In this document: positions 6,642 to 42,745 of the stretch, in pieces
Position numbering within the stretch: position 1 is the stretch's first letter
Layout: the number at the start of each line of letters is the position of its first letter
Origin: Patescibacteria group bacterium
GTDB taxonomy: Bacteria > Patescibacteriota > Microgenomatia > UBA1406
NCBI GenBank assembly: GCA_041665145.1
Contig: JBAYJK010000001.1
Span: forward strand, 165,629 to 229,628
DNA: 64,000 nucleotides
Direction: 5' to 3'
Program-made: the position numbers and the translations under genes
Notes under the pieces: model-generated
Databases searched by the model: none
What the model saw: only the letters and a program-made list of their open reading frames with translations
Told to the model about the DNA's origin: nothing

Positions 6642-7711
6642 AGTTCATATATTGAAAAACTTCTGCTGTTTTCGTCAAGAATTTCTATCTGACAATACAA
6701 AGCGATTGCCTTTTTACCTTTTAAAAGATTTTGTACAGAACCGATTTTTTCACCCCATTCGAAAACAAGTACATTACGAGGTTGCAGTAGTTTATTGATT
6801 TCAAGATTCTCCAGATCATCCTGATTCTCCGCACGATATAAATCAAAATGGTGGAACTTTGTGATAACTGAATGATTAGTAGTGTATTCATAGTAAAGCA
6901 CAAAAGTTGGCGAGACAACGTGTTCGGTATCTAGGTATTCGCCGATTCCTTGGGAGAAAACCGTCTTTCCGGCTCCTAAATTTCCCTGAAGTATTAAAAT
7001 AACCGGCATTTCGTGCGCCGCTTTCAAATACTTTGTAAGTAATGCAACAGCAAGTTGTTTAGTCTGACCGGCGGATACTGTTACCTTTCTCTCTATAAGT
7101 TTTAACTTCATGTCACCTTTTCTCAAAGTCGGCAAGGTGGATTCACTGAGATTCACGATGGTTGAAGGCAGGTTGTGCGGAAGCGTACCGTAATCAACGA
7201 TGAGATCAAGCAAGTTCTTTTTTGTATCCGAAAGAGTGTTAAGAAGCGCCTCAATCGAATAGTGTGGACCGCGGGCATGTATGTTAGCCGATGTTGCTGT
7301 GTATGGAAACGGCACAGTTTTTGAAAGCTGATGGAGAAACTCATAGTCCGGTATGCGTATCCCGAGAGTTTTGTCTTCTGCTTCCAATTGCGCGGATACG
7401 GTGTGGAGCGACGGTAATACTATAGTATATGCACCGGGAAGTATCATGTTCAGGGTCTGTTCCTGTTGTTTCGTCAGTGCAATATATTTTTTTGCATGAA
7501 CCAAGTCTTTCACCGCGATGGAAATTGCCTGACCGCGTGGTCGGTCCTTGAATGCCAGTAGCTTATTCACTGCCTTTTCCGAGTCCGCTCGTGCAGCAAG
7601 GCCGTACACTGTATCAGAAGGGAAAACGACCAGTCCATCGGTTAAAAGCGTTTTTTTAACTTCCTGTAATACTGAATTCCGATTGTTTGCGGTAAGCTGT
7701 ATGCGTCTCAT
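6638..7711 (-). CDS. tsaC/tsaE: Fusion of L-threonylcarbamoyladenylate synthase (TsaC/YrdC domain) and the t6A ATPase TsaE
   Basis: The N-terminal half has YrdC motifs (PSDTVYGLAA, KDRP, TSAN, PSTIV). The C-terminal half has TsaE motifs (GNLGAGKT, SPTF, HFDLYR, EWG). The start is set at ATG 7711, 7 nt after TATAAT (7719-7724, minus strand). Confidence 0.8.
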   Translation of the reverse strand: MRRIQLTANNRNSVLQEVKKTLLTDGLVVFPSDTVYGLAARADSEKAVNKLLAFKDRPRGQAISIAVKDLVHAKKYIALTKQQEQTLNMILPGAYTIVLPSLHTVSAQLEAEDKTLGIRIPDYEFLHQLSKTVPFPYTATSANIHARGPHYSIEALLNTLSDTKKNLLDLIVDYGTLPHNLPSTIVNLSESTLPTLRKGDMKLKLIERKVTVSAGQTKQLAVALLTKYLKAAHEMPVILILQGNLGAGKTVFSQGIGEYLDTEHVVSPTFVLYYEYTTNHSVITKFHHFDLYRAENQDDLENLEINKLLQPRNVLVFEWGEKIGSVQNLLKGKKAIALYCQIEILDENSRSFSIYEL

Positions 7712-7804
7712 GGGTAGTATTATACCAATCTGATGCTCTCCGGGATTTGACAAACGGGGCAAATTGCATTATTGTAGTAGTAATTATTTGTTTATTCATA
7801 ATCT

Positions 7805-8272
7805 ATGGCCACCACAAAAAATGGTAGCGATTGGAAAACGTACCTGGTCAAGCTCGAGGACACCTTCGATCTGTATTTAGTTAAGAAAGCACCGACAATT
7901 CCCAAAGCGTGGAAAGAAATGATCGTGTCATTTTCGCCATGGTTGACAGTTATTATGCTTGTGCTTCTGCTACCTGTAGTTTTTGCGATATTCGGTTTAT
8001 CAATGTTTGCAATGCCCTTTGCATACATGGGAGGGTTTAGGGCAGGCACCGGCTTTATCGTTTCGTGGGTTTTTAGTATTGTTACTCTCGTGCTCTATGG
8101 TCTTGCTATACCGGGACTTTTCAAGAGACAGAAGAAGGCGTGGACGTTCATGTATTACGCGGCGCTCATAACAGCGGTAGAAAATCTCGTTTCATTCAAC
8201 ATTGCGGGATTTGTAGTCGGAACGCTTATTTCCATGTACGTTCTGTTCCAGATAAAAGAATACTACAAATAA
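7805..8272 (+). CDS. Hypothetical small membrane protein (3-4 TM helices)
   Basis: The ORF has hydrophobic segments. I recognise no family motif. Confidence 0.45.
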   Translation: MATTKNGSDWKTYLVKLEDTFDLYLVKKAPTIPKAWKEMIVSFSPWLTVIMLVLLLPVVFAIFGLSMFAMPFAYMGGFRAGTGFIVSWVFSIVTLVLYGLAIPGLFKRQKKAWTFMYYAALITAVENLVSFNIAGFVVGTLISMYVLFQIKEYYK

Positions 8273-26989: not shown

Positions 26990-27607
26990 ATGAAAATCGA
27001 ACATGCATATGTGCCTGTACCAGCAGGACTACAGCCTTGGCAGATTGAGCCGGGGTTACTTTCAGTGTTTAACAATCAAGCCGCTATTCCGGTCAGCAAC
27101 AATCTGTCTATCGCCAGGCCGTTAGTGCAACATACAGATAATATTCTGGCACTTCTTAATGGTGAGGCTGCCCTTGTCCCCGTGCAAGGGGCGGAGATTG
27201 CGCAGACCATTGCAGCCGGTCTGAACCTTATCGCGTACGATCATGCGGCAGGTGCGGTTGTCGGGTACCAATCGATTGGTCTCTGGAATCAACTAGGCCT
27301 GCTTGAATTACGGTCGGCAAAGGTTTTGCCGAACTACCGGGGTAACGGGCTCAACACCGTTATGAAACAGCTTGCAATATCAATTGGTATGCAACAGTTT
27401 CCGGGACGGAAATTTTTGGGATTTACCGAAGCAGAGAGCAAGAGTCGGGGAATATTATCCAAACTTGGGTTCCAAGAGATGACAATGCAACAAGTTGCTG
27501 CGAAATGGCAGGAGTTGTCGTCAATTTGTCCCGACCAATGCTTTATTAAAACAGGCCATCCGTGTGGCTGTAAAGTTTATATACTTGATCCATATGAAAC
27601 CAAATAA
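26990..27607 (+). CDS. GNAT-like acetyltransferase (weak assignment)
   Basis: The C-terminal half has a VLPNYRGNGLNTVMKQL segment resembling the GNAT acetyl-CoA (R/Q-x-x-G-x-G/A) motif. Confidence 0.4.
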   Translation: MKIEHAYVPVPAGLQPWQIEPGLLSVFNNQAAIPVSNNLSIARPLVQHTDNILALLNGEAALVPVQGAEIAQTIAAGLNLIAYDHAAGAVVGYQSIGLWNQLGLLELRSAKVLPNYRGNGLNTVMKQLAISIGMQQFPGRKFLGFTEAESKSRGILSKLGFQEMTMQQVAAKWQELSSICPDQCFIKTGHPCGCKVYILDPYETK

Positions 27608-27608
27608 T

Positions 27609-28679
27609 ATGTCAAAAACAATAACCGAGGTTTTTATGGATTTAGTGCACATACCATCACCGAGCGGCAACGAAAAAAAAGTAGCTGAATATGTGACTCA
27701 ATTTCTGAAACCGCTTGGTTGGAACACATTCATTGACGATAAAGGGAATGTTATCGCACGTACTTCGCACCGTACCGTAAAACCGGTGGTATTTGTTGCT
27801 CACATGGATACGGTTCAAAAACCGGGTGAGATTGTGCGTCCGCAATTTGATGGCATACATTTTACCAGCGATGGTACTACGATTTTGGGAGCAGATGATA
27901 AAGCGAGTGTTGCTGTACTTCTTGCCTTGGCAAGAAGTTTTTATGAAAGCAAAACTGAACCTCCTGTCGTGCTCATATTTACCACCCGAGAAGAGGCGGG
28001 AACGATGAGTTCGTCTGCTCTTTCTTTTGAGGAGATAAATCCACTATTTATCTGTAATGTTGATGGATCAAATGCTTTGGGGACAATTGACTATCGATCA
28101 TATGGTCAAACAATATTCGAGTTGTCGATCCACGGCAAAGCAGCGCATGCCGCTATTGAGCCAGAGAAAGGAGTACACGCTATTTCGATTCTCGCTCGGA
28201 TAGTAAGTGGTTTGCGTATGGGCAAGTCAAAGTCACGAACCCTAAATATTGGCAGTATTTCTGGGGGCGGGGCAACTAACATTGTTCCTGCTACTGCATC
28301 TGTACGTGGCGAGGTGCGGAGTTATAGACAAGCTATGATCAAATCAACACTTGATAAGATCCTGCAGGATGCAACCCGCATAGCGAAAAAATATGGTGCT
28401 ACTGCTCGACTAAAGATAGTAGAGAACACTCCACCATTTATTGGGGCTAAGTCATCTTTTGCGGTAAGTCGTGTTGTAAATGCACTGAAGAAATCCGGCG
28501 TTGCTCCGATAGTACAGAGTGCGACCTATACAAGCGATTCAGGGTATTTGTCTGCTTCGGGGTATCCGACTGTAACGCTTTGTAAGGGTGGATTAAATCC
28601 CCATAGCACGAGCGAATCGATTACTCTGGTGGAGATGGAGATGCTTCTTGAAATTGTGCAAAAGATAATTATTGATTGA
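27609..28679 (+). CDS. M20-family metallopeptidase/amidohydrolase (PepT/ArgE-like)
   Basis: Has IPSPSGNEKKVAEY, VAHMDTV, GADDKASVA, TTREEAG and a dimerisation-domain pattern. The start is moved to ATG 27609 because the track ORF from 27495 overlaps the upstream gene. Confidence 0.8.
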   Translation: MSKTITEVFMDLVHIPSPSGNEKKVAEYVTQFLKPLGWNTFIDDKGNVIARTSHRTVKPVVFVAHMDTVQKPGEIVRPQFDGIHFTSDGTTILGADDKASVAVLLALARSFYESKTEPPVVLIFTTREEAGTMSSSALSFEEINPLFICNVDGSNALGTIDYRSYGQTIFELSIHGKAAHAAIEPEKGVHAISILARIVSGLRMGKSKSRTLNIGSISGGGATNIVPATASVRGEVRSYRQAMIKSTLDKILQDATRIAKKYGATARLKIVENTPPFIGAKSSFAVSRVVNALKKSGVAPIVQSATYTSDSGYLSASGYPTVTLCKGGLNPHSTSESITLVEMEMLLEIVQKIIID

Positions 28680-28704
28680 CAAGTTTAGTACGTACTAGTA
28701 TACT
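28676..28704 (+). promoter_or_regulatory. Sigma70-type promoter TTGACA-17-TATACT driving a leaderless TrpR-family gene
   Basis: TTGACA at 28676-28681, a 17-nt spacer and TATACT at 28699-28704. The ATG at 28713 is 8 nt downstream. Confidence 0.7.
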
Positions 28705-28710
28705 AGTACG
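28691..28710. promoter_or_regulatory. TrpR-type operator: perfect 20-bp palindrome CGTACTAGTATACTAGTACG
   Basis: The core GTACTAGTATACTAGTAC differs from the idealised E. coli trp operator GTACTAGTTAACTAGTAC only at the two central positions. It covers the -10 box and the predicted transcription start. Confidence 0.8.
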
Positions 28711-28712
28711 GT

Positions 28713-28973
28713 ATGAAAAACAAAGCAGAAATCGAACAGCTGGTACATGTATTACTTAATCTTAGCAACAAGGAAAGAATGGTGGATTTTCTAGAGGGTA
28801 TTTTGACACCTTCAGAACTTGAGGAAGTTGCTCATAGGCTGCAGATAGTAAAAATGTTGAAACTAGGTGTACCGCAAAAAAATATAGCTAAGGAATTGGG
28901 TGTCGGTATTGCAACCGTTACCCGGGGATCTCGTGAGTTGAAGCAAAACAGATTTTCGTATCTTTGGCAATAA
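28713..28973 (+). CDS. TrpR-family (Trp repressor / YerC-YecD-like) DNA-binding protein, 86 aa
   Basis: Has the HTH region NIAKELGVGIATVTRGSRELK (compare E. coli TrpR ELGAGIATITRGSNSLK). The preceding helix motif is LTPSELEEVAHRLQIV. Confidence 0.85.
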   Translation: MKNKAEIEQLVHVLLNLSNKERMVDFLEGILTPSELEEVAHRLQIVKMLKLGVPQKNIAKELGVGIATVTRGSRELKQNRFSYLWQ

Positions 28974-28977
28974 AGCT

Positions 28978-29024
28978 GGCTCGTGTGTGTTTTCTGAGAA
29001 GAGAACGTGCACGAGCCATTTTTT
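28978..29024 (+). terminator. Intrinsic terminator after the TrpR-family gene
   Basis: GGCTCGTG (28978-28985) pairs with CACGAGCC (29010-29017), and T6 follows at 29019-29024. Confidence 0.65.
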
Positions 29025-29117
29025 GTGGCAATTATTATTAGTTACAAATAACTGTTATGTCAGCTGAAAATGCTTTTCCAGTGATCGGAGACGTGGGACT
29101 CGTCTCATCCAGGTTTA

Positions 29118-29783
29118 TTGAGTTACAAAATGGGTTTCCCTGGCGTCATAAAAACACATATAGTCGGGGACGGTATTGAAGGGTTTGACCGCGTGCACGA
29201 AATGACCGAACTTACCTCAAATGCTTTTGGAGTTATGATGGACGAACCGGATGTTGCTCGGCATCTGCTTGGGCACCTTGTGGTAGATGTGGCAGTTGAA
29301 AACAGATCGATAGGGTTTGCAAGCGCCAAGTATTTCAGAACTCAAGCAGGAAACGTCTTATATATTTCCGGAATGGCAATCCATAAAGATTTTCAAGGCC
29401 AGAGAATTGGACCATTGTTGGTTTCTGAAATGTACGACTATTACCAACAGGCAGGAAAAGATGTTGCATATATAGCAGGAAGAACATCAAATCCAAGAGT
29501 AGCCCGATCACGAAGGGTATATTGCGAGGGTAATGGTACATATCCGATTGACCGTGCACCCGACGATAAAGTGGTTGTTGTGGCACAGCATATCCGACAG
29601 GCATTGGGTATGGTGGGAGCTTTTGATCCGTCAACTTTGGTATGTAAAGATGTATATCGCCAACCCTTATACATTGAGCGCCCGAGTAGCGGCGACCAAA
29701 AAATCGATACATTCTTTTTAAGAAATGTAGGAACACGTGATGCGGTTTTTATAATCGGAATTCCTGATTTTAGCAGTTCATAG
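29118..29783 (+). CDS. GNAT-family acetyltransferase-like protein
   Basis: Has ISGMAIHKDFQGQRIGPLLVSEMYDYY (Q-x-x-G-x-G/A-like CoA motif). The start is uncertain: TTG at 29118 or ATG at 29130. Confidence 0.5.
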   Translation: MSYKMGFPGVIKTHIVGDGIEGFDRVHEMTELTSNAFGVMMDEPDVARHLLGHLVVDVAVENRSIGFASAKYFRTQAGNVLYISGMAIHKDFQGQRIGPLLVSEMYDYYQQAGKDVAYIAGRTSNPRVARSRRVYCEGNGTYPIDRAPDDKVVVVAQHIRQALGMVGAFDPSTLVCKDVYRQPLYIERPSSGDQKIDTFFLRNVGTRDAVFIIGIPDFSSS

Positions 29784-29792
29784 AAACCGACC

Positions 29793-30710
29793 ATGTTACC
29801 AGAATTAATTATAGACACAGATGCGGGTCACGACGATATTTTGGCCATTATACTGTTGGTTAAATCAAAACTTTTTAGTATTAAGGCTATTACTACGGTG
29901 GCGGGAAATTCCTCAATTAGAAATGTAACGCGGAATGTATTTTATGTGCTTAACTTATTGCATGAGTCAAATATTCCCATATATTCGGGTTTCCCGTCAC
30001 CTCTTAAACGAAGACTTATTAAAGCAGTTATACACGGCAAAAACGGACTCTCCGGTGCGGACACATCAAAAACAAAATATCACCTGACTAAAGATGCTCC
30101 GGAACAATTAATCAAGATTGTCAAAAATTCACCCCGAAAAGTAACAATCTTGACACTCGGTCCATTATCAAATATTGCGCGGGTGTTGCAAAAAGACCAC
30201 TCAATTGCGACTTCAATAGACAAGATAGTTATGATGGGTGGGTCGTTAAACGGTTATGGTAATAAAAGCAGAGTTGCTGAATTTAATATGTTTGTAGACC
30301 CGGAAGCCGCAGATATTGTATTTAAATCACCCATTCAAAAAATATTACTTCCACTAGATGCTTGTAACGAATGCGCATTTTCTTTAAAAAGCTTTACGCA
30401 ATTACCTACATCCGTTTTGAATACAGCTATTACACAGATGATGAGAGAATATATCTCGAAGATAAAAATTCGGACAGGTATAGAAGGAACTCTGGTTTAT
30501 GATGCGCTTGCGGCTTATTACCTTATCAGTCCAACAGTCTTTACAACTCGCCTTATGGATATCGTGATTGAGAAAAGAGGAAAATATACATCCGGGATGA
30601 CAGTAGCTGAGCGGCGGTTTAGTGTTGTAAAAAAGAATAATGTGAGCGTTATAGAAAAAGTAGAGTACGAAAAGTTTAAGAGTTACTTTTTTGCTTTGTT
30701 AAAAAGTTAA
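29793..30710 (+). CDS. Inosine-uridine-preferring nucleoside hydrolase family (IUNH), copy 1
   Basis: Has the N-terminal Asp cluster LIIDTDAGHDDILAI (DxDxxxDD) and the family-typical length of 305 aa. Confidence 0.85.
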   Translation: MLPELIIDTDAGHDDILAIILLVKSKLFSIKAITTVAGNSSIRNVTRNVFYVLNLLHESNIPIYSGFPSPLKRRLIKAVIHGKNGLSGADTSKTKYHLTKDAPEQLIKIVKNSPRKVTILTLGPLSNIARVLQKDHSIATSIDKIVMMGGSLNGYGNKSRVAEFNMFVDPEAADIVFKSPIQKILLPLDACNECAFSLKSFTQLPTSVLNTAITQMMREYISKIKIRTGIEGTLVYDALAAYYLISPTVFTTRLMDIVIEKRGKYTSGMTVAERRFSVVKKNNVSVIEKVEYEKFKSYFFALLKS

Positions 30711-31014
30711 AGTAACCTCCGCACCCGCGATAAAGCCAATGGGCAACGCGGGTGACGGTTGCAGTTGATGTTTTTAATTTTTTAGCAATTTCCTTATATG
30801 AACTGCCGGTAAAAATAAGGCGGGCCATCTCGAGACGGTTGGCAAACTCTTCTATTTCAGCAGGGGTTAGCATGTCCCGCATAAGCGCTGCCGCTGCAGC
30901 CGTATCTTTCAATGAAGCAAATGCTCGTGTTAAATTTTCCTCCTTAATGTTACGGGGAGAAAAGTGCTCTGACTGTTTAAATTTACTAACAACACCTGTC
31001 CGCGCTTTTACCAT
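30676..31014 (-). CDS. TrpR-family / YerC-YecD-like regulator, copy 2 (112 aa)
   Basis: Has LTPAEIEEFANRLEMARL and the HTH EIAKKLKTSTATVTRVAHWL. The leaderless-type start has TGaTATAGT 6 nt upstream on the minus strand. Its 3' end overlaps the IUNH copy 1 gene by 35 nt (convergent). Confidence 0.8.
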   Translation of the reverse strand: MVKARTGVVSKFKQSEHFSPRNIKEENLTRAFASLKDTAAAAALMRDMLTPAEIEEFANRLEMARLIFTGSSYKEIAKKLKTSTATVTRVAHWLYRGCGGYFNFLTKQKSNS

Positions 31015-31062: not shown

Positions 31063-31091
31063 TTGACATCAATGTATTAATGTGATAATAT
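31063..31091 (+). promoter_or_regulatory. Promoter TTGACA-17-TAATAT with TG extension
   Basis: TTGACA at 31063-31068, a 17-nt spacer, TG at 31083-31084 and TAATAT at 31086-31091. Confidence 0.7.
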
Positions 31092-31100
31092 GTTGAAGTC

Positions 31101-31169
31101 ATGAATATTTTACGCAAAAATATAGTTAGTCAAGAAATGCATCATAGCCCCACTCATTCGGGGCAATAA
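31101..31169 (+). CDS. Candidate 22-codon leader peptide MNILRKNIVSQEMHHSPTHSGQ
   Basis: The ATG is 9 nt after the -10 box. The His codons at 31140-31145 immediately precede hairpin arm 1. The stop at 31167-31169 lies just past arm 2. Confidence 0.35.
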   Translation: MNILRKNIVSQEMHHSPTHSGQ

Positions 31170-31198
31170 ATTTACCGCAACAAAATAGAAATTTATCA

Positions 31199-31220
31199 CC
31201 CCGCCAATGGCGGGGTTTTT
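31199..31220 (+). terminator. Leader terminator/attenuator hairpin CCCCGCC-aat-GGCGGGG + T5
   Basis: A 7-bp GC stem is followed by TTTTT, 36 nt upstream of ATG 31257. An alternative pairing of CGGGG (31159-31163) with CCCCG (31199-31203) is possible. Confidence 0.6.
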
Positions 31221-31256
31221 AGTGGGTTAAAACATTAATAATTAAAACAAAAAAAC

Positions 31257-32840
31257 ATGAAACCAGAAATACCAAAGTACATATTGACTGATGATAGCCG
31301 GGCACTTTTCTCTAAGTTAAACGGAGGAGAAGACATTATTGAAGATAGAGTATTTAACCAGGCTGCATCAAAATATTTTGCGATCATTAATCAGCAAATC
31401 GAGCAGGCATTTGATGGGCCACTGAAGATAGTTGGGGAAACGGAAAGAAGAATTGAAAGCCGACTGCAAAGCAGGGTTCGCTCCATTCTGAAATCGGATC
31501 AGAATGTAGTCTGTATTTGTCTGGACCGGTTTCTCTTCGCTGATTTTGATAAAGACCAGACCTTTGCTGACAGGTTTTTTAGATTTAGTACGTGTCGGAC
31601 TATTGACGGACGAAAAGAACCTCGACAAGGAAATCCTTCGTTTGCAGACCAAATTCAGAACTTGCTGAGAAGCATTCCCGATATTAGAAATAGGAAGGTG
31701 GTTGTCGTCGATGACGGTCTGTTTTCTGGCGGTACTATTAATGATTTCCTGATGTTACTCAAAAGTAACGGGATTGAAATAAATCTGGAAAAAATAATCG
31801 GATACATGGGTCCCCGATCGGTCATGAAAGCTTCAGACAGAAAAACTGAAATCCTGCAGCCCATAGACAATTTATTTGAATGGGTGGATGTGCGTGATTT
31901 TAGCCCGCTTGGAGGTAAAAAACTAAATGCCAGTGCCAATAATATGGTAACCACATCAATCCCATATTTATACCCATGGAGTGAGGGAAGTGCGGCAACA
32001 CTCGATATGTCTCCCGCATTTTTTGATACCAGTATCGCGATTATGAAAGGATTCAGACAATTAGTAGTAACGTACGAACTTTTGCGAAATACCAAATTAA
32101 GGTTCAGAGATTTGATTAAGGCCGGTTACCCTTTACCAACCGATAAAGAAAAGACTGTTCCCATCTCAATTAATGACACTGTTACCGATTATTTGGATCG
32201 TTGTATTGGTTTGGTGGAACAAGAGAAAAATAGAAAAGTGGTTATTTGCGACATGGATGGAACGTTTTACCAGCTTGATGGTAAAGGAGGTGGTTATCAA
32301 AATTCTAAGCTAGAGTTAGCAGTACAAACCAATGCCTTATTATTTATACAACGTAGAGAGAAATGCACACCCGATCAAGCACAGTTAATATTTTCTAGAG
32401 CCCAACAAGATCCAGTGGGGGCAAGTTTGTTCTTAGCGGAGAAATATGGAATTTCCCGTACAGATTATTTTAATGAAGTCTGGAATATCGATCCTGCTGG
32501 AATAGTTGTTAATTACGAAGTTGCAACTGGGTCGTTGTGCCAGTTTAAAGGAAAGTACCCGGGGGTGAAACTAGTTTTATTAACGTCAGCTCCCAGAGTT
32601 TGGGCTGAAAAAGTTTTAAAATTCTTGGGTATCAGGGAGCAATTTGAGCTTATATATACCGGAGAACAATTTGGGTCAAAAACAGAAGTTTTTGCACTGC
32701 TAGCTGGTCGTTATAAACCGGAAAACATGCTGTCTATTGGTGATCAGCAGGCAACTGATATTGAACCAGCTCAACAATTGGGAATGAGCACTCTCGTAAT
32801 TAATAGCCCCGACGAAGTTAGTAGAATATTACAATTATGA
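31257..32840 (+). CDS. Fusion protein: type I phosphoribosyltransferase-like N-domain + HAD-superfamily hydrolase C-domain
   Basis: Has the PRPP-binding motif KVVVVDDGLFSGGTI. HAD motif I is VVICDMDGTF, motif II is LLTSAP and motif III/IV is SIGDQQATD. Confidence 0.7.
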   Translation: MKPEIPKYILTDDSRALFSKLNGGEDIIEDRVFNQAASKYFAIINQQIEQAFDGPLKIVGETERRIESRLQSRVRSILKSDQNVVCICLDRFLFADFDKDQTFADRFFRFSTCRTIDGRKEPRQGNPSFADQIQNLLRSIPDIRNRKVVVVDDGLFSGGTINDFLMLLKSNGIEINLEKIIGYMGPRSVMKASDRKTEILQPIDNLFEWVDVRDFSPLGGKKLNASANNMVTTSIPYLYPWSEGSAATLDMSPAFFDTSIAIMKGFRQLVVTYELLRNTKLRFRDLIKAGYPLPTDKEKTVPISINDTVTDYLDRCIGLVEQEKNRKVVICDMDGTFYQLDGKGGGYQNSKLELAVQTNALLFIQRREKCTPDQAQLIFSRAQQDPVGASLFLAEKYGISRTDYFNEVWNIDPAGIVVNYEVATGSLCQFKGKYPGVKLVLLTSAPRVWAEKVLKFLGIREQFELIYTGEQFGSKTEVFALLAGRYKPENMLSIGDQQATDIEPAQQLGMSTLVINSPDEVSRILQL

Positions 32841-33745
32841 ATCAAATAATCATTGATACAGATCCGGGAGTTGACGATGCCTTAGCGATCGCCCTAGCTT
32901 GTCTTTCAAAACTGAATGTGGTCGCTCTGACAACGGTTTATGGTAATGTCAATATTGCCGATTCAACTCGCAATGCACTGACGATATTGTCAGTCATTAA
33001 TAAAAAAGTTTCCGTATACCAAGGGGCGAGTAAACCTTTGATAAATAATGCGATCAAGGCGCAATCTCACGGAGAAAAAGGATTGGGTGGATTCGCAACC
33101 AAACTTAATTGGCAAAAAAGCCGGCGTAGTGCACGAAAATACTTGGAAGATACCTTTGGCTCAGCAGCGGATACGTCTATTACGCTTGTATGTATTGGTC
33201 CTGCAACTAACATTGCCAAATTATTTATTGCCAATCCTCAATCTGTAACAAAAATAAAAGACCTCGTGATTTTAGGTGGGGTATTTAACGAAAAAGGGAA
33301 TATGTCTCAATATTCCGAGTTTAATGCTATCAATGACCCTGAAGCATTAAAAATAGTTTTAAATGCCAATTGCAATAAGGTGCTGATACCTATAAACATT
33401 TGCAGGAAGGTTGTCTTTAAAAAAAGTGATTTTAATAAACTAATAAATAAGAAATTACAGCGATCTTTTGGCGCTATTGCCGATGCTTATATCAACTATT
33501 ATACCTCTGGAAGTAAATATGGTCAGTTTACCGGTGGAGTAATGTACGATTTGCTCACTGTTGTCTATCTTCTAGAGCCGAAGTTATTTAAAACTATAGA
33601 TGCAAATGTAAATGTCATCACAAGATTGGGCCCAATGTACGGTAGGACCATAATAAAGAAAATAGGAAAAGTGAATTGCCGCGTCGTCAGCGAAATTAAG
33701 CCAAGAAAAGTAAAGCAAGTATTTTTTAACGTTTTAAATAAATAA
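32837..33745 (+). CDS. Inosine-uridine-preferring nucleoside hydrolase family (IUNH), copy 2
   Basis: Has IIIDTDPGVDDALAI. Its start overlaps the stop of the upstream gene (ATGA). Confidence 0.85.
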   Translation: MNQIIIDTDPGVDDALAIALACLSKLNVVALTTVYGNVNIADSTRNALTILSVINKKVSVYQGASKPLINNAIKAQSHGEKGLGGFATKLNWQKSRRSARKYLEDTFGSAADTSITLVCIGPATNIAKLFIANPQSVTKIKDLVILGGVFNEKGNMSQYSEFNAINDPEALKIVLNANCNKVLIPINICRKVVFKKSDFNKLINKKLQRSFGAIADAYINYYTSGSKYGQFTGGVMYDLLTVVYLLEPKLFKTIDANVNVITRLGPMYGRTIIKKIGKVNCRVVSEIKPRKVKQVFFNVLNK

Positions 33746-33747
33746 AA

Positions 33748-34839
33748 ATGGAACTAACAAAAATTCTTTCTAAGCTAATCACAATTCCTTCTTTTGTCGA
33801 TGAGAAAAACAACGAGCAAAAACTTGCCGTTTTTATCGAAAGTTATTTGAAGGTTAATGCTCCTTGGCTTAACTTGTCGCGCCAGTATGTGGCTGAGGAC
33901 CGATGGAATATTATCGCCGGTGAAGCTAAAAACCCGGAACTGGTTTTTGTCTGTCACATGGATACGGTGCAACCTACAGGTGATACGCAAAAAATGCTCT
34001 CTCCGTCAGAAAAAGACGGGTATATCTATGGGCTTGGAGCAGCCGACATGAAAGGCGGAACTGCAGCATTGCTTGCGGCGATAAAAGCTGTTGGTCCGAC
34101 AAAAAATGTCGCATATGTGTTTGACTGCGACGAAGAATATTACTTCAAGGGAGCCAAACAGTTATTGAAAAAATGTAAGTGGAATCCCCAACTGGTTATT
34201 TGTCCCGAACCGACGGATATGGAAATCGTAAACGGTTGTCGTGGAATTATTGAGATAAAATTAGACGTAATCGGAAAAAGTGCGCATGCCGGACGGCCTG
34301 ATTTTGGAATCAATGCAATCGAAAAAGCTGTTGCTGTTATCTCGGAACTTAAGAGTAAGATAGGCGAGTTTGATGAGAAGAAACTCGGTAGAACAACAGT
34401 GAACTTAAGTAGATTGGATGGGGGGAAATTACAGAATGGACAGATAATTACCCAAGGGAATGCAGTCCCCGATGTTGCGCGCGTACTCTTGGACATACGA
34501 CCGGCAAGCAATAAATTGAATGGCGATAGAATAATAAGGATGCTTATGACTATTGCGAAAAGGAATAATGTGACGTTGTCAGGTCCGACTGTTACGATTG
34601 ATTATCCGGCATATTATTCAATTCCGAACGAATGTATTAATAGGCCATATCGAGCCAATTTAGGAAAAGGTGGTTTTTACGAAGCGGCTTTATTTTCCCG
34701 AGCCTGGCAATGTACGGCATTTACATTCGGTCCGGGTGACGCAAGTACTTCGCACAGCCCTGATGAGCGGGTAAAACTAGCTGACTTGACGAGTGTAAAG
34801 AAGGTATTCGAAAAGCTTCTATTGACATATCGTGTATAA
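33748..34839 (+). CDS. M20-family amidohydrolase (ArgE/DapE-like), copy 2
   Basis: Has CHMDTV, GAADMKGG, DCDEEY and SAHAGRP motifs. Confidence 0.8.
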   Translation: MELTKILSKLITIPSFVDEKNNEQKLAVFIESYLKVNAPWLNLSRQYVAEDRWNIIAGEAKNPELVFVCHMDTVQPTGDTQKMLSPSEKDGYIYGLGAADMKGGTAALLAAIKAVGPTKNVAYVFDCDEEYYFKGAKQLLKKCKWNPQLVICPEPTDMEIVNGCRGIIEIKLDVIGKSAHAGRPDFGINAIEKAVAVISELKSKIGEFDEKKLGRTTVNLSRLDGGKLQNGQIITQGNAVPDVARVLLDIRPASNKLNGDRIIRMLMTIAKRNNVTLSGPTVTIDYPAYYSIPNECINRPYRANLGKGGFYEAALFSRAWQCTAFTFGPGDASTSHSPDERVKLADLTSVKKVFEKLLLTYRV

Positions 34840-34853
34840 TTATCATAGTTAAA

Positions 34854-35142
34854 AGCTTTGATAGAGACCGAGTAGCCCCGACGAGTCGTGGGTGAATTAC
34901 ACTCTAGAGCTGTAAGCTGAAAAGCAAGTAAGCCGAGCCGGGTGCGCCCCGTGATAGCGCAAGAGTATGTCAGCGTAAGCCGGAGTACTCGATAATGAGC
35001 GTTTGTGCTTTTAATCGAGTCCCGCATAATGGCGGGATTTTTTTTAGCATAAACTGGAAGACAAGGTGGTACCGCGAGCATTAAGCCCTCGCCCTTGTTG
35101 TGAGTCATATTTTTATGACTGACAGGGGTGAGGGCTTTTTTT
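34854..35142 (+). promoter_or_regulatory. T-box riboswitch leader (transcriptional), minimal Stem I, probable Tyr (UAC) specifier
   Basis: The T-box sequence is GGUGGUACCGCG (35065-35076). The antiterminator has helix A1 ACAAGG/CCUUGU, a 7-nt bulge UGGUACC and helix A2 GCGAG/CUCGC. It competes with a 15-bp terminator (35084-35098 / 35122-35136) followed by a T-run. The Stem I base is a K-turn: AGC-UUU-GA (34854-34861) opposite GA-GCU (34907-34911). The specifier loop reads ACCGAGUA / GAAUUACA. TATAAT at 34835-34840 is upstream. Confidence 0.75.
35020..35045 (+). promoter_or_regulatory. Stem III-position hairpin TCCCGC-ataatg-GCGGGA followed by T8 (terminator-like)
   Basis: A 6-bp GC stem plus U8 lies inside the T-box leader. 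It belongs to the CCCGC/GCGGG hairpin family seen at 31199, 52233 and 53241. Confidence 0.55.
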
Positions 35143-35259
35143 GTGGAAATGAAACATTTTAAAAACAGATGCACAGGAAGCAGGAATTTTTATTATATTC
35201 AGCCCTTCTATGGAGGGCGATGGTTGTTTGCTTTTATAAATTGGAAATCAAAAATTACT

Positions 35260-36294
35260 ATGAAAAAACAAAAAATGTTATGGTTTCAGGATGATTTAAA
35301 GCTAGGTGCTCGTAAGTCATGTTGGCAGAGAATAGATTCCCTCACAGGAGCTCTTGTACGAGCAGTTGGTCATCCGAATATGGATCATGAAATTGTGGAT
35401 CCAAGACCACATATAAGTGCGCTTGCTGAAAAGCTCCCACGGGACGCAACATGCGTTATTGACTTAACAAATGGCCAACTTATGGGAGTGCTGTCAGGAT
35501 TATTTGAGAGCAGCACTCTTGTTACTGGTTTCCATTTGAGCAGGCTGCGAGTTGTGTCTTCGGCACGGTTGGATGGTTCAGGTTTTATGTTAAATAAGAC
35601 AGTGAGAGAATTCGCTGCCTTACCATCGCTTATTGACACCTTCCGGACAGTGATACTGGATGATGTTGGTTGGTCTGGAAGATCAGCACTTGAGGTGTGC
35701 CGACTCTTTGGTCTTCCAGTAGCACAAACCACCTTTGGGTTTGTTATGGGTAATGCCGGTGAGTTTGGTCCTTCACCGGGAGCTGTAAATTTATTGCAGA
35801 GTCTGGGAGGTCGAGTAGTTACTGGTGGTTTGGTTGCGACACCCCGTGACGACGGATTTCATGTTTCAGATTTCTGTAGCACTAATAACATTTCTCATTC
35901 CGAATTAATAGAAGCTTTGTTGGTAATTCAGAGTTTGCGAGAGCATGCTGCTCAATTTCCTGGAGAGAGCAAAGAAGTAGAAAAAAGAATAATGCAGCTT
36001 TTTAAGGAGGCTCGCGATCTGCTCTTTCCAAACGCTCTTAGTTCGACTATGATAAAAGAATTAATGCGAGAGGGAAAGGTAATTTGTATGAACGGTATAC
36101 CAAAAGATGCACTCTTTCAGACGAATCCATTAAATTGGTTACTTCCTTCTTTTGCTAAGCGTGTTCGAAGTGAAGATTTGCAACAGAATTTGGCAATTGT
36201 CATTGGCTCTTTAGATGAGTTACGGGCGATCAAAGAAGAAGGTAATGTGCAAGGAATAGAAGGTAACTTTCTAAATATGGAGATGAGACTATGA
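35260..36294 (+). CDS. PRT-like protein (degenerate PRPP motif), paralogous in layout to the N-domain of the 31257 protein
   Basis: Has TVILDDVGWSGRSALEV (hydrophobic strand, DD, small residues). The start is moved to ATG 35260 because the track ORF from 35128 runs through the T-box terminator. Confidence 0.5.
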   Translation: MKKQKMLWFQDDLKLGARKSCWQRIDSLTGALVRAVGHPNMDHEIVDPRPHISALAEKLPRDATCVIDLTNGQLMGVLSGLFESSTLVTGFHLSRLRVVSSARLDGSGFMLNKTVREFAALPSLIDTFRTVILDDVGWSGRSALEVCRLFGLPVAQTTFGFVMGNAGEFGPSPGAVNLLQSLGGRVVTGGLVATPRDDGFHVSDFCSTNNISHSELIEALLVIQSLREHAAQFPGESKEVEKRIMQLFKEARDLLFPNALSSTMIKELMREGKVICMNGIPKDALFQTNPLNWLLPSFAKRVRSEDLQQNLAIVIGSLDELRAIKEEGNVQGIEGNFLNMEMRL

Positions 36295-36818
36295 CAAAGA
36301 AAAGAAAGATTCAAATAGCAGTTGTTGGTTCAATGTTCGACTTGCCGCAAAACCGGTCTACTATCGCGCTTGCAAGAGATATTGGAAGAGAATTAGCCAC
36401 TAATAAAGCAGTTTTGTTATATAGCTTCGAAGGGGATAGTCAATCACTTTCTTATATAGCAGCTAGAGAAGCTGAAAAATGTGGTGGAGAAATTATCGCA
36501 TTTCTTTGGGGTAATACGAAAGTGACGGGCTCTGTAGTAGGAAAAGCAGTTCGAACCGGGCAACTCCGAGGAGGAGGCAGAGAATTCCCACTAATTTTAA
36601 GTGCTAACGCTGTTATAAGTATTGGTGGTGGATCAGGGACTCTTATGGAGATAGCTATGTCTTATCAAGCGGGAATTCCTGTCATTGCTCTCGAAAATAC
36701 TGGTGGATGGAGTGAACGCCTGATGAATACGTTTATGGATGAAAGAAAAAGAAATAAAGTGCTTTCAGCAAAAGATGCTCGAAGTGCAGTGCTTCTGGCG
36801 ATAAAGGAAAGTATTTAG
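36291..36818 (+). CDS. TIGR00725 / LOG (SLOG)-family Rossmann protein
   Basis: Has IAVVGS at the N-terminus and the ISIGGGSGTLMEIAMSYQAGIPVIAL motif (GGGxGTxxE). ATGA overlap with the upstream gene. Confidence 0.7.
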   Translation: MTKKRKIQIAVVGSMFDLPQNRSTIALARDIGRELATNKAVLLYSFEGDSQSLSYIAAREAEKCGGEIIAFLWGNTKVTGSVVGKAVRTGQLRGGGREFPLILSANAVISIGGGSGTLMEIAMSYQAGIPVIALENTGGWSERLMNTFMDERKRNKVLSAKDARSAVLLAIKESI

Positions 36819-39025: not shown

Positions 39026-42000
39026 ATGGGTATGTTTGATTTTTTGGGAAGTAAGAAGAATGACCAGTCAGGAAGCCCCAGCCAAGATGCGCAAGGGACA
39101 ACGACCTCATCAACGGTGACGACGGTAACCACTGATCAATCATCTGTGCAATCAGCGCAGAGTGGCACCATGTATAATGGTGTTGGTTCTGCTCCTGCAG
39201 GTGCGGTAACAACAGATGGAATAACGCCACCTCAAGCCCCAAAAGCAGCACAACCTTCGGGACAAACGCAGACAGCGGGGATTCCCACAGCAGCTGCTAA
39301 CACGCAACAACCTGCTACACCAATGGATAAGAAAACAGGAATGGATATAATGACTCGTCTTACACAACGCTCGAACAGAGTTCTTCTTGTTGCGGCACAA
39401 AAAGCGCAAGCGCTCAACAATCCTCTTGTTGACAGCGAGCATGTTCTATATGGTTTGTTGGCAGACCAGGAAATTTTCAATTTGCTTTCTCAACTCAAAC
39501 TGATTCCACAGGAAGTCGTTAAGCAGTTGGAAGCAACGTTCCATAAAGGAACAACTCCGACAAAACCTCAACTTGCTCCCCGGGTAAAGAAGATTTTGGA
39601 AGACGCACTGATTGTAGCGCGTAAGCTGGGATACGAATTTATCTCCCCGGAACATATTTTGTATGCCCTGTATCATGAGGGCGAAGGAGTCGGTTCGCGC
39701 ATTTTAGTTAAGGTAGGATTAAACAAGGACGAATTGAATATCAAGGTTCTTGGTAAGAAAAAAGGTCTTGAGACACAACAACAGGAAGAAAGAAAACAAA
39801 GCGCATTGGAAAAGTACACAACAGACCTTACGGCAAAAGCTGCTGCAGGGCAGCTTGATCCGGTAGTTGAACGGTCTCAAGTCATCGAGCGCGTAATTCA
39901 CATTCTTTCTCGAAGATCAAAAAATAATCCTGTCTTGACCGGCGAGGCGGGAGTCGGAAAAACGGCAATTGTTGAGGGTCTGGCCGAAAAAATAGTTTCG
40001 AAAGAAGTCCCTGAAACCTTGTTAAATCACCGTGTTTTGCAACTCGACCTTATGGCGATTCTAGCAGGCGCTTCACATAGGGGTGAATTTGAAGAGCGTT
40101 TGAAAGGGGTTATGGACGAATTGAAAGCCATGATGGGCAAAGTTATTCTTTTTATAGATGAGATTCACAACATCGTCGGCGCAGGTGGGGAGGCTGGGTC
40201 AGGAGACGCGGCAAACATTATTAAACCGGCGCTTGCGCGAGGCGAAGTTCAGCTAATCGGTGCAACTACCACCTCAGAATACCGAAAATATATTGAAAAA
40301 GATCCGGCACTTGAACGGCGTTTCCAGCCGATAGAGGTTCCCGAGCCATCGGAAGATGCGGCCATAAAAATGCTTCGAGCCATACGTGATAAATATGAAG
40401 CCTTTCATAAAGTTAAAATTCCTGATGAGGCAATCGAAGCTGCTGTTAAGCTCTCTAAACGGTACGTCGGCGGACGATTTCTTCCTGATAAGGCAATCGA
40501 TCTTATAGATGAAACAGCCTCAGCTGTGCGTCTTCCGATTATCTCTCTACCTGAAGAAATAAAGTCTCAAGAAGAAAAAATAAAAGCGATGCAGCAGGAA
40601 CGAATGGAGGCTCTGAAGATTAATAACAAAGTAAAGGCCAATATCTATGAAAAGAAAATAATCGATGCACAAGACCTCCTCAAGCAGAAGCAGGAGGAAT
40701 ACTTGCAGAAAAAAGCTATGTCTGTCGGTGTTGTTAATCTTCAAATGATTAAGGACGTAATTGCCCGGTGGACGGGAATTCCGGTAAATAAAATTACGGA
40801 GTCGGAAAAGGATAAAATTTCCAACCTCGAAGACATCATGCATAAGCGTCTCATTAATCAGAAAGTGGCAGTTGCCGCGGTAGCTCAGGCGATCAGACGC
40901 GGAAGAGCTGGTCTTAAATCAACGCAGCGACCTATCGGAAGTTTTATCTTTCTCGGTCCCACGGGTGTAGGAAAAACAGAATTGGTGAAAACACTCGCTG
41001 AGGTTTTGTTCGGAACCGAAGATTCCATGGTGCGATTCGACATGACGGAGTACATGGAAAAACACGAAGTCGCAAAATTGTTAGGCGCTCCTCCAGGATA
41101 TGTTGGATACGAAGAAGGAGGAAAGCTTACCGAAGCAGTCAAAAGAAAGCCGTATAGCGTTGTGCTGTTTGATGAGGTGGAAAAAGCACATCCTGATATT
41201 TTTAATATTTTGCTTCAGATTCTTGACGATGGGCGATTGACTGACAACAAGGGCCATACTATCTCTTTTAAAAATACGGTGGTTATATGTACTTCAAATA
41301 TCGGTTCACGCACTATTCAACAAGAATTAATGAAGAGTGGCAAGGATCAAATAGAAGAGCCTCTCGCGCTTAATACGTATGTTGTTTCGCCGCGGGGACG
41401 TGCTATTGTAACTGTCGGTAACACGGTGTTTTTGAAAGAGGCAGAAACAAATACCTGGGCGGAATCGATATTGCGCGATTATTTTGCAGGGCAAAAAATT
41501 TTAACAATAGACGAGAATGGTAAAGACAAGGAAGTTGATTTTTCTTTGTTCAAAATTCAGACGCATGCAATATCACCACAAGGGTCAGAATACATAACCG
41601 CAGAGGAGAATTTGTATGTGAGAACAGCCACAACGGCGAAAGAGTGGCGCCTGATGAAGTTGCTTGATTACGCAAAAGACGCTGTGGTAGTAAATGGATT
41701 ACCTGATACTCCCGAGGAGCAATTACCGACCATCAAGTTCCACACGCACGCCTTCACTTCGCAAGAAGAAGAGATTGTGACGTACAAAAATAGAATGTGG
41801 AAAAGAAAAACGGGAACGAACGACTGGCAAACCCAAACTCTTTCGGAATATTTGAATGGAGCAAAAACCTCGGATAATAAACCGTTGCCGGTTGCATATT
41901 GGAATATTCATCTATTCAATTCTAAGGGTGAGGAATTGATTGTGGTTGGAGAAATGGTGTATCACAGATCAGGTACGGTATGGGAAGCAAAGCCGGTGGT

Positions 42001-42745
42001 TGAATTCTTCGGAGAAGGGTTCCCATTGCAAGCCGAAATAAAACGGATGCAGGAAGTTCAGGAAGAAGTTGATAAACAAAAATTTGGCAAAATCAAAGAC
42101 AGAGTCATGGATGAACTGATGAAGTTTATGCGTCCTGAACTGGTTAACCGGTTTGACGAGGTGGTGGTTTTCGAACCGCTCCGATATGAGCACATGTTGC
42201 TGATCGTGAAACTACAAATAAAAGGATTGCGCACGTTGCTTGAAGAGCAAAGTTTCGGACTTGAAGTTACGGAGGCCGCTCAAAAAGAAATCGTCAGGGT
42301 GGGGTTTGACCCGGTATTTGGTGCACGACCCCTGAGACGCGCATTACAGAAGCTAGTTGAAAATCCGATTTCTGAGCTGATAATTGCCCAGAAAGTTAAG
42401 GAGGGTGAAGCAATATTAGTAGATTATGACGGTGAGAACTTTACGTTTACCATGGCACAGGCCGAGCTTAATCCTCAACAGGAGGAGAAGAAAGAGTCAT
42501 TCACCTGCCAATACTGTCAGTATAAATTTGAAACGATCGTCCGGAAAGGAAAAAGCACCGTAGTTTGTTCGAAGTGTGGGAAAGGGCAAAAGGAAAAGAA
42601 AGACGATAACAAACAGCAGGCTTCGGATAAAAAAGAAGATGAGAAGAAAACCGAGCCGGCAATATCAATGACATTGCCTCCAACAGCAGATATTAACGGG
42701 AAGGCTGCTCAGAATAATTTTCAACCGCAACTCGCCACGTTGTAA
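39026..42745 (+). CDS. clpC: ClpC/ClpB-type AAA+ chaperone-unfoldase with N-terminal low-complexity extension, about 220-aa repeat insertion in AAA2 and C-terminal zinc ribbon
   Basis: Has Clp_N repeats, Walker A1 [15 protein letters not shown], a short M-domain, Walker A2 [15 protein letters not shown] and sensor-2 GARPLRR. The insertion lies between TSNIGS and [10 protein letters not shown]. The C-terminal CxxC...CxxC is FTCQYCQ...VVCSKCG. Confidence 0.85.

Follow-up and report, generated by a model that had tools for sequence, protein, structure and literature searches.

A conserved fusion of a phosphoribosyltransferase-like domain and a HAD phosphatase in Patescibacteria, encoded behind a predicted histidine-codon attenuator

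What could be the use of a protein that would form a nucleotide from 5-phosphoribosyl-1-pyrophosphate (PRPP) and at once remove its phosphate, when the next gene encodes an enzyme that would undo the result? This question is raised by a 64-kb stretch of DNA (hereafter the window) from a member of the Patescibacteria, or candidate phyla radiation (CPR). A large part of bacterial diversity belongs to this group, whose genomes measure about 1 Mb and whose members are believed to draw nucleotides and amino acids from partner organisms. The gene concerned is an open reading frame (ORF) with an ATG start on the forward strand (31257-32840), whose 527-aa product had been reported in a preliminary description as a fusion of a phosphoribosyltransferase (PRT)-like domain and a HAD hydrolase. 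The ORF was recovered exactly as described, with KVVVVDDGLFSGGTI at aa 147-161, CDMDGTF at 331-337, LLTSAP at 441-446 and SIGDQQATD at 493-501. It encodes a genuine, conserved bifunctional protein in which a divergent PRT-fold domain with an intact PRPP loop is joined to a HAD-IA phosphatase complete in its motifs. The protein is a new combination of two known superfamilies, it lies within a sizeable uncharacterised family, and its regulatory and genomic context is unexpected. Its biology is defined by features of regulation and context that the preliminary description did not contain, namely a predicted His-codon attenuator, the genes for tRNA-His, histidyl-tRNA synthetase (HisRS) and HisA in relative loci, a TrpR-family regulator and a Tyr T-box module.

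The N-terminal domain (aa 1-322, 31257-32222, forward strand) carries the PRPP loop at aa 147-160 (31695-31736). Pfam Pribosyltran (PF00156) is matched over aa 130-174 only, at E=4.9e-7 and 29.6 bits against a cut-off of 26.3, which is a marginal pass; 38 of 39 family members match it at E<=0.01. The domain was modelled alone (pLDDT 91.3) and compared with the PDB by Foldseek. The possibility, allowed for beforehand, that this part might not have the PRT fold does not hold, since the top matches are type I PRTs (HGPRT, OPRT and APRT; probability 0.9-1.0, E=2e-3 to 3e-2), and the sole clear non-PRT in the list is a pyridoxal reductase at rank 36. The superpositions cover about 155 aligned columns of the 322 residues at TM-scores of 0.3-0.48, and about 55 additional N-terminal and 110 additional C-terminal residues lie beyond the PRT core. 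When the whole chain was used as query, HAD proteins only were retrieved. In its model, the N-terminal domain is a highly divergent type I PRT fold, and the earlier assignment of this part is upheld by Pfam, by the conserved PRPP loop and by Foldseek. With APRT, HGPRT, OPRT and UPRT/PyrR it has in common the core fold and the PRPP motif (four hydrophobic residues, DD and the SGGT loop), but it carries N- and C-terminal additions and invariant motifs of its own. The family profile of the domain, searched against the PDB, matched solved PRTs at the PRPP loop only (E>=0.048). Assignment to one PRT family by sequence was tried with hhalign and rejected (probability 7% against E. coli Upp and 23% against Apt, the query sequences being approximate).

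An alignment of 39 sequences with 47% mean identity has 24 invariant columns, nearly all of which are in the N-terminal domain. They include D13, L89-D90, R109, R114, R123, Q132, W209, D214, G220, P236-Y237, P240-W241-S242, G244 and A247. In the PRPP motif VVVVDDGLFSGGT, D152, G154, G158 and T160 are invariant and D153 is conserved in at least 90% of the members, the second acidic residue being missing in a few. The family-specific invariant motifs of the domain are LDR, R109/R114/R123, WxDxRDF, GGK and PYxxPWSxGxxA. L89-D90-R91, which follows a core strand, and the hairpin with R109/R114/R123 are candidate equivalents of the pyrophosphate (PPi) loop, flexible loop and hood of PRTs, the profile alignments being unreliable outside the PRPP loop. 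In the alignment, the invariant columns have the appearance of a constrained active site and not of a decaying module.

The HAD-IA phosphatase domain (aa 323-527, 32223-32840, forward strand) matches Pfam Hydrolase (PF00702) over aa 327-509, at E=4.9e-10 and 40.6 bits against a cut-off of 26.4. The HAD core had been called complete, and all four motifs are indeed present: motif I is DMDGT 332-336 with D332 and D334, motif II T443/S444, motif III K475 and motif IV GDQxxTD 495-501. Each of them is at least 90% conserved among the HAD-bearing members, and the DxDGT phosphatase signature is intact. In the model, a C1 helical cap (helices 351-433) lies between the strands 328-332 and 438-442. Among named families, TIGR01993, the SDT1-type pyrimidine 5'-nucleotidases, was matched more than any other (over its full length by 35 of the 36 HAD-bearing members among 39 scanned), with all members far under the cut-off. 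The target itself scores 30.5 bits against a cut-off of 142.9, outside the equivalog, and all its NCBIfam matches are sub-threshold. The best HAD superpositions were obtained with yeast SDT1 (3onn/3opx) and plant XMP phosphatase (7ef6/7ef7), at TM-scores of about 0.55. By these comparisons the HAD half resembles a 5'-nucleotidase, yet it is no member of the SDT1 equivalog; it has the four motifs and the C1 cap in common with the SDT1-type enzymes and differs from them by the fusion to the N-terminal domain and by its low scores. A full-length AlphaFold2 model of the 527 residues (pLDDT 94.3, pTM 0.90) shows the two domains in a predicted fixed arrangement.

The preliminary description had not recognised this architecture from characterised enzymes. 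The literature searched contained no account of PRT-HAD fusions as a known family, of this operon or of histidine synthesis by CPR bacteria, and the architecture is uncharacterised in this sense; a precedent exists for the combination of a PRPP-dependent transferase with a HAD 5'-phosphatase. In Bcs3 of Haemophilus influenzae type b (Hib), CriT and CrpP perform PRPP-dependent glycosyl transfer and HAD-type removal of the 5-phosphate in one polypeptide (PMC10299916). The ribofuranosyltransferase 7shg of T. composti, which likewise unites a PRPP-dependent transferase and a HAD phosphatase, is matched by the target in Foldseek through the HAD domain only. The transferase domains of CriT-CrpP and 7shg are glycan-specific, have been described as a new GT fold, use polysaccharide acceptors and are encoded in capsule or O-antigen loci, whereas the target is found among genes for a hydrolase and for translation rather than for glycan synthesis. 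The top 50 Foldseek matches of the N-terminal domain contain neither 7shg nor Bcs3, and by this measure the domain does not have the glycan-PRT fold.

About 74 full-length relatives of the fusion, at 37-52% identity, were found in many samples, 73 of them at 97-100% query coverage. Those with names belong to Roizman-, Woese- or Beckwithbacteria or to the "Patescibacteria group", mostly Microgenomates. Five species-representative records of metagenome-assembled genomes (MAGs; L012-L016, the L numbers from L001 to L035 denoting fetched relative loci) are titled 'uncultured Gammaproteobacteria bacterium' and carry close relatives of the gene; the label is unconfirmed and may be a placeholder or incorrect. 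Genome and metagenome pattern scans with strict degenerate patterns gave 6 and 16 loci, respectively, which amounts to a census and not to a full taxonomic survey.

The N-terminal domain has a wider distribution than the fusion. An exhaustive profile search returned 477 cluster representatives at E<=1e-3, of which 116 were at E<=1e-10. Many members of this superfamily are stand-alone proteins of 290-365 aa, and a 797-aa protein from the Deltaproteobacteria also belongs to it. The order of the two domains is reversed, HAD first, in P0132, and in P0121, P0123 and P0138 the N-terminal domain is fused to a guanylate-kinase-like P-loop domain (L008, 3154-4974) in which G-x-G-R-[ST]-T replaces the Walker-A G-K-[ST]. 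Across the superfamily (16% mean identity), D90-R91, R114, R123, Q132, D152-D153, R213-D214, G219-G220, P236-Y237 and P240 are kept, and the SGGT phosphate loop decays in distant clades. The unrelated partner domains (HAD and guanylate-kinase-like) both act on nucleoside 5'-monophosphates (NMPs), and the HAD fusion exists in both orders; the N-terminal domain would therefore make or bind a ribose-5'-phosphate compound.

The gene opens an operon whose other members encode a nucleoside hydrolase and an M20 amidohydrolase. A nucleoside hydrolase had been named as the next gene, and this was found to be so: the ORF at 32837-33745 (forward strand) is an IUNH-family protein (IU_nuc_hydro, E=2.8e-74) that overlaps the target by 4 nt and is translationally coupled to it. 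It was also said that this enzyme would reverse the reaction of the fusion protein. The hydrolase is real, yet it departs from the standard IU-NH enzymes: where these have the catalytic His, it reads GGVMYD, against GGPVHD in YeiK and RPMHD in 8qnd (PDB alignments, E=1e-35 to 1e-37). It keeps the DTDPGxDD motif for Ca2+ and ribose, the EFN motif and the Asp next after the position of the acid. It thus shares the Ca2+/ribose motifs of RihA/B/C, IU-NH, IAG-NH and QueK and differs from them in having Tyr for the catalytic His that marks group I, and its scores are under all NCBIfam equivalog cut-offs. Tyr is found at this position in 17 of 17 linked Patescibacteria hydrolases, and Cys in the enzyme of the Deltaproteobacteria locus (L034). 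With the catalytic His replaced and the Ca2+/ribose motifs intact, the substrate may not be a canonical nucleoside, and the Tyr-type enzymes found here and in the T-box module described below look like a distinct hydrolase clade.

A scripted neighbourhood census covered 32 fetched loci, 23 of them distinct, assessable loci of the fusion. In 15 of these 23 the next gene downstream encodes an IUNH, mostly with an overlap at the stop codon, and in one more an IUNH gene lies within 1.8 kb. The linkage is also kept with the kinase fusion (L008), the permuted fusion (L009) and a stand-alone N-terminal domain (L010), and in L034 the gene of the N-domain family is followed by IUNH and then PfkB. In L001, a SLOG/LDcluster4 protein takes the place of IUNH and is followed by PfkB and NUDIX genes. 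The last gene of the window operon encodes an M20 (ArgE/DapE-like) amidohydrolase by Pfam and NCBIfam (33748-34839, forward strand); M20 has the same position in L024 and L026 and adjoins the stand-alone N-domain gene in L010. Divergently from the target, a TrpR-family (YerC/YecD-like) regulator is encoded at 30676-31014 on the reverse strand (Pfam Trp_repressor, E=1.7e-16), and a TrpR-family gene is directly upstream of the target homologue in 9 loci.

The region between the regulator and the target has the geometry predicted for a classical His-codon transcription attenuator. A promoter-like site, TTGACA-17-TAATAT with a TG extension (31063-31091, forward strand; 10/12 in a consensus scan), is predicted in front of a leader mini-ORF of 22 codons, MNILRKNIVSQEMHHSPTHSGQ with its stop (31101-31169), which contains the His codons CAT CAT at 31140-31145 and CAT at 31155-31157. 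The leader ATG of the window lies almost at the predicted start of the transcript. By RNAfold, a hairpin between elements 1 and 2 (GCCCC at 31147, GGGGC at 31160; 31147-31164) overlaps the end of the mini-ORF, and an intrinsic terminator with a perfect stem, ACCCCGCC-AAT-GGCGGGGT and a T-run (31198-31221), ends 35 nt before the ATG of the target. The GGGG of element 2 could alternatively pair with the CCCC of the 5' arm of the terminator, which we infer to be the antiterminator; this 2:3 pairing is part of the minimum-energy folds predicted for L001, L009 and L010, and the sequence of the window would allow it too.

Similar leaders were found in the relatives. Of 24 loci, 10 have a His-His run that reaches a stop within 14 codons (shuffles gave 3.6+-1.7, maximum 8), and 19 of 26 have a perfect-stem terminator within 150 nt upstream (0.17+-0.43 in shuffles). 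The His-run leaders span four protein architectures. They end in ...KIVHHNLAPAG (L001), ...SLHHTHAHAG (L004), ...FIHHHHSFEG (L006), MVNLSITHLHHHIA (L008), ...VAHHTF (L009), ...SIHHHHPLIFSPGGC (L010), ...LSHHTHAKAG (L018) and ...LVNHHHSFEG (L033), each followed by a stop; those of L019 and L022 contain ...NSNHHIH... and ...NNHHHD..., respectively. After each leader ORF of the relatives come a hairpin, then an AT-rich spacer and then a terminator. The His codons of the runs are CAT in 23 cases and CAC in 3, whereas the genes of the window favour CAC (60:42). In L004 (7001-7060, equal to L012), the annotated 20-aa N-terminal extension of P0063 holds the terminator of the attenuator (CCGCCTCACGGCGG and T9), the true start being the ATG at about 7061. 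In L003 (about 7606-7917), L009 (5624-5935), L018, L019 and L022, the His run and the first hairpin form the C-terminal tail of a TrpR-like ORF on the same strand, and in these loci the regulator gene may double as the leader peptide. A palindrome, ATGTTA-N6-TAACAT, overlaps the -10 region before the leader ORF in L001, L004, L006, L020 and L033 and is less clear in the window (31063-31100); the TrpR-family regulator may use it as its operator. Compared with the hisL-type attenuators of enterobacteria, the short ORF with consecutive His codons, the alternative hairpins and the intrinsic terminator just upstream are shared, but the runs are short (2-4 His), the genes form no recognisable his operon, the hosts are Patescibacteria and there is no Rfam family. 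Upstream of the Deltaproteobacteria member, no Rfam match was found.

Other links to histidine were found in the relative loci. A tRNA-His(GUG) gene precedes the PRT-HAD gene by no more than about 250 nt in L013, L014, L015, L024 and L025, which belong to clades without a clear His-run leader, and in L010 a tRNA-His gene directly follows HisRS; altogether, the loci contain 11 tRNA genes, 8 of them for tRNA-His. HisRS is encoded downstream, co-directionally and closely spaced, in L003, L008, L009 and L010. In L005 (9454-10335), the gene downstream of IUNH encodes a 293-aa HisRS homologue that consists of the catalytic core without the anticodon-binding domain, a HisZ-like architecture. In L006 (7001-10217), IUNH is followed by a HisA homologue (TIGR00007, E=1.4e-56). 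The syntenic locus L033 (8847-10705) has the same His leader, then a gene for a 374-aa remote PRPP-loop protein and then HisA, with no HAD or IUNH; compared with L006, this slot is an in-situ replacement. The HisA clade of these two loci is small, with about six members (5 close relatives). Within the window, no his genes (20 ORFs scanned) and no homologues of HisRS, HisA, EamA, PfkB or NUDIX were found, which is not decisive.

A second module under the predicted control of a tRNA follows directly after the operon. A T-box leader (34849-35142, forward strand) matches RF00230 over 34849-35099 at 62.6 bits (E=5.2e-12), and its terminator extends to about 35142. The match spans the whole model, and the leader contains the conserved T-box sequence GGUGGUACCGCG; the scores of the window and of the corresponding leader in the Daviesbacteria locus L035 (87.6 bits, E=2.3e-19) are under the Rfam gathering score of 93. 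By the Rfam consensus alignment, the specifier is GAA-U-UAC-A, that is Tyr, a Leu reading (UUA) being not strictly excluded; the specifier of L035 is identical. The base that pairs with the discriminator is U, which fits A73. Under the T-box stands a gene for a protein with the PRPP-loop-like motif VILDDVGWSGRS and no Pfam or NCBIfam match, named X388 (35260-36294, forward strand), whose true start is probably at 35260 of the ORF 35128-36294. Translationally coupled to it is a SLOG/LDcluster4 (TIGR00725, LOG-like) gene at 36291-36818 on the same strand (Pfam LDcluster4, E=8e-18). The X388 family has 7 proteins. X388 was considered as a paralogue of the N-terminal domain and rejected, as BLASTP, HMM and hhalign searches gave nothing significant; the hhalign comparison of the two families is weak and collinear over four motifs (probability 16%), a sign of remote homology at most. 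In L035 (7675-10785), the T-box and the X388 orthologue are followed by overlapping HAD and Tyr-type IUNH genes, so that the same three activities recur under the control of a second tRNA. The pairing of SLOG with X388, and its replacement of the hydrolase in L001, would fit the release of a base from a ribotide as by the N-glycosidases LOG and PpnN, although the LDcluster4 subfamily is uncharacterised.

Taken together, these features can be read, tentatively and as a possibility short of a probability, as those of a module that loads a compound on PRPP, dephosphorylates it and releases it, and that is induced by uncharged tRNA-His. The N-terminal domain would transfer ribose-5-phosphate from PRPP to a nitrogenous acceptor to give a ribotide, and the fused HAD domain would remove the 5'-phosphate to give a riboside. 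The downstream Tyr-type hydrolase would later free the base, or, in some genomes, a LOG-like SLOG protein would act directly on the ribotide; the ribose-phosphate would be a transient handle. With uncharged tRNA-His, the ribosome would stall at CAU-CAU, the antiterminator would form and the operon would be read through. The histidine links suggest that the acceptor is a histidine-related heterocycle, of the imidazole or purine type, rather than a standard salvage base. The net conversion of base to nucleoside that was put forward for the fusion protein in the preliminary description is plausible without being proven, and compounds other than canonical nucleobases may serve as acceptor.

Several points weigh against this proposal. 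One base passed through all three enzymes gives a net conversion of PRPP to ribose, PPi and phosphate (Pi), which is a futile cycle; the puzzle noted from the window alone is genuine and is conserved across the family and in both modules. A plain futile cycle is unlikely, as evolution has kept the arrangement under starvation-type control. Outside the PRPP loop, the N-terminal domain has no significant sequence similarity to characterised PRTs, so that catalysis is deduced from fold and conservation. The kinase-like partner domain, with Arg for the Walker-A Lys, may bind a nucleotide without phosphorylating it. The most divergent fused subgroup (6 loci: L007, L027-29 and L031-32) has neither IUNH nor SLOG, and L033 has no IUNH. 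In L010, HAD and IUNH form an operon on the strand opposite to the stand-alone N-domain gene, an arrangement that fits a HAD enzyme feeding the hydrolase better than one processing the product of the PRT. Finally, the attenuator is a prediction only, and no Rfam family was matched by the target leader at E<=5.

The separate HAD and IUNH operon of L010 is what would be expected if the three enzymes formed a salvage or turnover triad whose steps are not consecutive, with HAD acting on NMPs, the hydrolase splitting nucleosides and the PRT salvaging the base again with PRPP. Nucleoside hydrolase and PRT are the standard salvage route of purine-auxotrophic protozoa. The IUNH gene next to PfkB, which is ribokinase-like, in the Deltaproteobacteria MAG is the classic layout for nucleoside to base and ribose, and the SLOG, PfkB and NUDIX genes downstream in L001 would also suit such a pathway. 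Induction by uncharged tRNA could serve a stringent-like adjustment of the nucleotide and ribose pools, or the replacement of the adenine nucleotide and PRPP spent on histidine synthesis; in E. coli, starvation for amino acids activates PpnN, an enzyme of the LOG family. This explanation would have to account for a fusion, in both domain orders, of two steps that are not adjacent, and it explains neither the control specific to histidine and tyrosine nor the presence of two different PRT-like families. It would also put hydrolases without the general acid to work on canonical purines, and its path from NMP to nucleoside, base and NMP again is futile as well. We regard it as rather unlikely.

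The occurrence of two PRT-like families under different tRNA signals can be taken further than in the load-and-release proposal. The PRT-like proteins might be amino-acid-specific entry enzymes of a hitherto undescribed class of pathways controlled by tRNA charging, in which ribose-5-phosphate would be placed on a His-related compound (a Tyr-related one in the T-box module) and later removed. Removal may be by HAD and the Tyr-type hydrolase or by the LOG-like enzyme. In its most pointed form, the N-domain family would stand in for HisG in Patescibacteria as a non-homologous protein of the type I fold, and the phosphatase and hydrolase would remove the imidazole ribotide by-product in cells without PurH. 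We consider this extension improbable.

The attenuator in the position of hisL raises the question whether the PRT-like domain is an analogue of HisG, with HAD and the Tyr-type hydrolase (or SLOG) clearing the imidazole ribotide by-product AICAR in organisms without PurH. The leader, PRPP-loop protein and HisA of L033, and the PRT-HAD, IUNH and HisA in the syntenic slot of L006, are in line with this, as are the HisZ-like HisRS core of L005 and the linkage to tRNA-His and HisRS. AICA-riboside is an N-ribosyl imidazole, for which the N7-protonating His of the hydrolases would be irrelevant. However, the loci and the 20 window ORFs scanned yielded no further his genes, and the HisA clade is tiny. 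Patescibacteria are generally regarded as amino-acid auxotrophs, and the Deltaproteobacteria member would have no need of such a function. The Tyr T-box module has the same partners, though tyrosine synthesis has no PRPP step. Homology of the N-terminal domain to HisG was found in none of Pfam, NCBIfam, PDB and Foldseek, which leaves room for functional analogy alone. On balance, a HisG analogue appears unlikely, and slightly more so than the class of entry enzymes.

Sensors with the PRT fold, such as PurR and PyrR, are well known, and the N-terminal domain might likewise sense PRPP or a nucleotide and gate the fused nucleotidase without being a transferase. In agreement with this, only the PRPP-binding loop is recognisably PRT in sequence, and the SGGT 5'-phosphate loop decays in distant clades while other invariant residues persist. 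The stand-alone N-domain proteins encoded in operons have nothing fused to them that could be regulated, and the domain has three different fusion arrangements. In addition, some 20 polar or aromatic positions outside the PRPP loop are invariant and, together with a 170-residue elaboration specific to the family, look like a substrate pocket. A pure sensor is therefore judged quite unlikely.

Of the four tRNAs that carry queuosine (Q), those for His and Tyr are the ones read by the two control devices, and the CAT bias of the leader His codons (23:3) runs against the CAC preference of the window. Salvage of queuosine or other 7-deazaguanines may thus be considered, with HAD and the Tyr-type hydrolase (or SLOG) freeing queuine or a preQ base from Q-5'-MP and queuosine, and with the CAU-rich leader sensing Q-deficient tRNA-His. 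The queuosine hydrolase QueK belongs to the IUNH family, and Qng1 cleaves Q-5'-MP (PMC11130926). A 7-deazapurine, which has no N7, would fit the loss of the catalytic His. Queuine salvage needs no PRT, however, no tgt or queA was found in any locus, and a T-box senses aminoacylation and not Q status. The leaders are rich in His specifically, not in Asn, Asp or Tyr, and the HisRS and HisA genes of the operons speak for histidine itself, which makes queuosine salvage very unlikely.

That the gene is an artefact (two genes mis-called as a fusion) or an anti-phage or conflict element is scarcely credible, despite a weak match of 19 of 39 members to Pfam PRTase-CE (best E=8.8e-6), the occurrence of SLOG domains in defence systems and a very weak match of the SLOG neighbour to Thoeris ThcA (E=0.055): the first is effectively excluded by the 73 relatives at 97-100% query coverage and the fixed arrangement of the model, the second by PADLOC, which found nothing in 10 cluster proteins save two weak CasR matches (E 3e-4 and 1e-3; HTH gene at 28713-28973), and both sit ill with loci that are syntenic with housekeeping genes (HisRS, RF1, L31, ribosomal proteins) and with a G+C content of the cluster (about 0.38-0.39, against 0.40-0.46 in the remaining window) that is not anomalous.

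The analysis defines a module of three predicted activities, phosphoribosyl transfer, 5'-dephosphorylation and N-riboside hydrolysis, which appears to be wired to tRNA-His through the predicted attenuator, tRNA-His genes and HisRS. If its role is metabolic, it would be a new route by which PRPP and ribose chemistry contributes to the supply of amino acids, and it might even replace the first step of histidine synthesis; if it is regulatory, it would be a new coupling of nucleotide turnover to translation status in minimal cells. The loci also provide concrete candidates for classical leader-peptide attenuation and for T-box control in CPR bacteria, and they define a clade of nucleoside hydrolases without the canonical catalytic His.

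Ahead of the target operon and its TrpR-family regulator gene, the window contains a gene for a GNAT acetyltransferase (29118-29783, forward strand; Pfam) and, at 29793-30710 on the same strand, one for a second Tyr-type IUNH (Pfam) that groups with the IUNHs of L010 and L035. They are preceded by a small helix-turn-helix (HTH) gene of the TrpR family (28713-28973), after which a terminator with a 19-bp stem is found at 28977-29018. The region 27495-30710 gives the impression that the cluster is partly duplicated upstream (M20 peptidase, TrpR-family gene, GNAT and second Tyr-type IUNH), and a pair of M20 and GNAT genes as in this region also follows the stand-alone N-domain gene of L010. Further downstream, at 39026-42745, a 1239-aa ClpB/ClpC-like AAA+ protein is encoded; as read from its translation only, it has a low-complexity N-terminus and a large insertion between the ATPase modules, and it ends in a zinc-ribbon-like tail of the form CxxC...CxxC.

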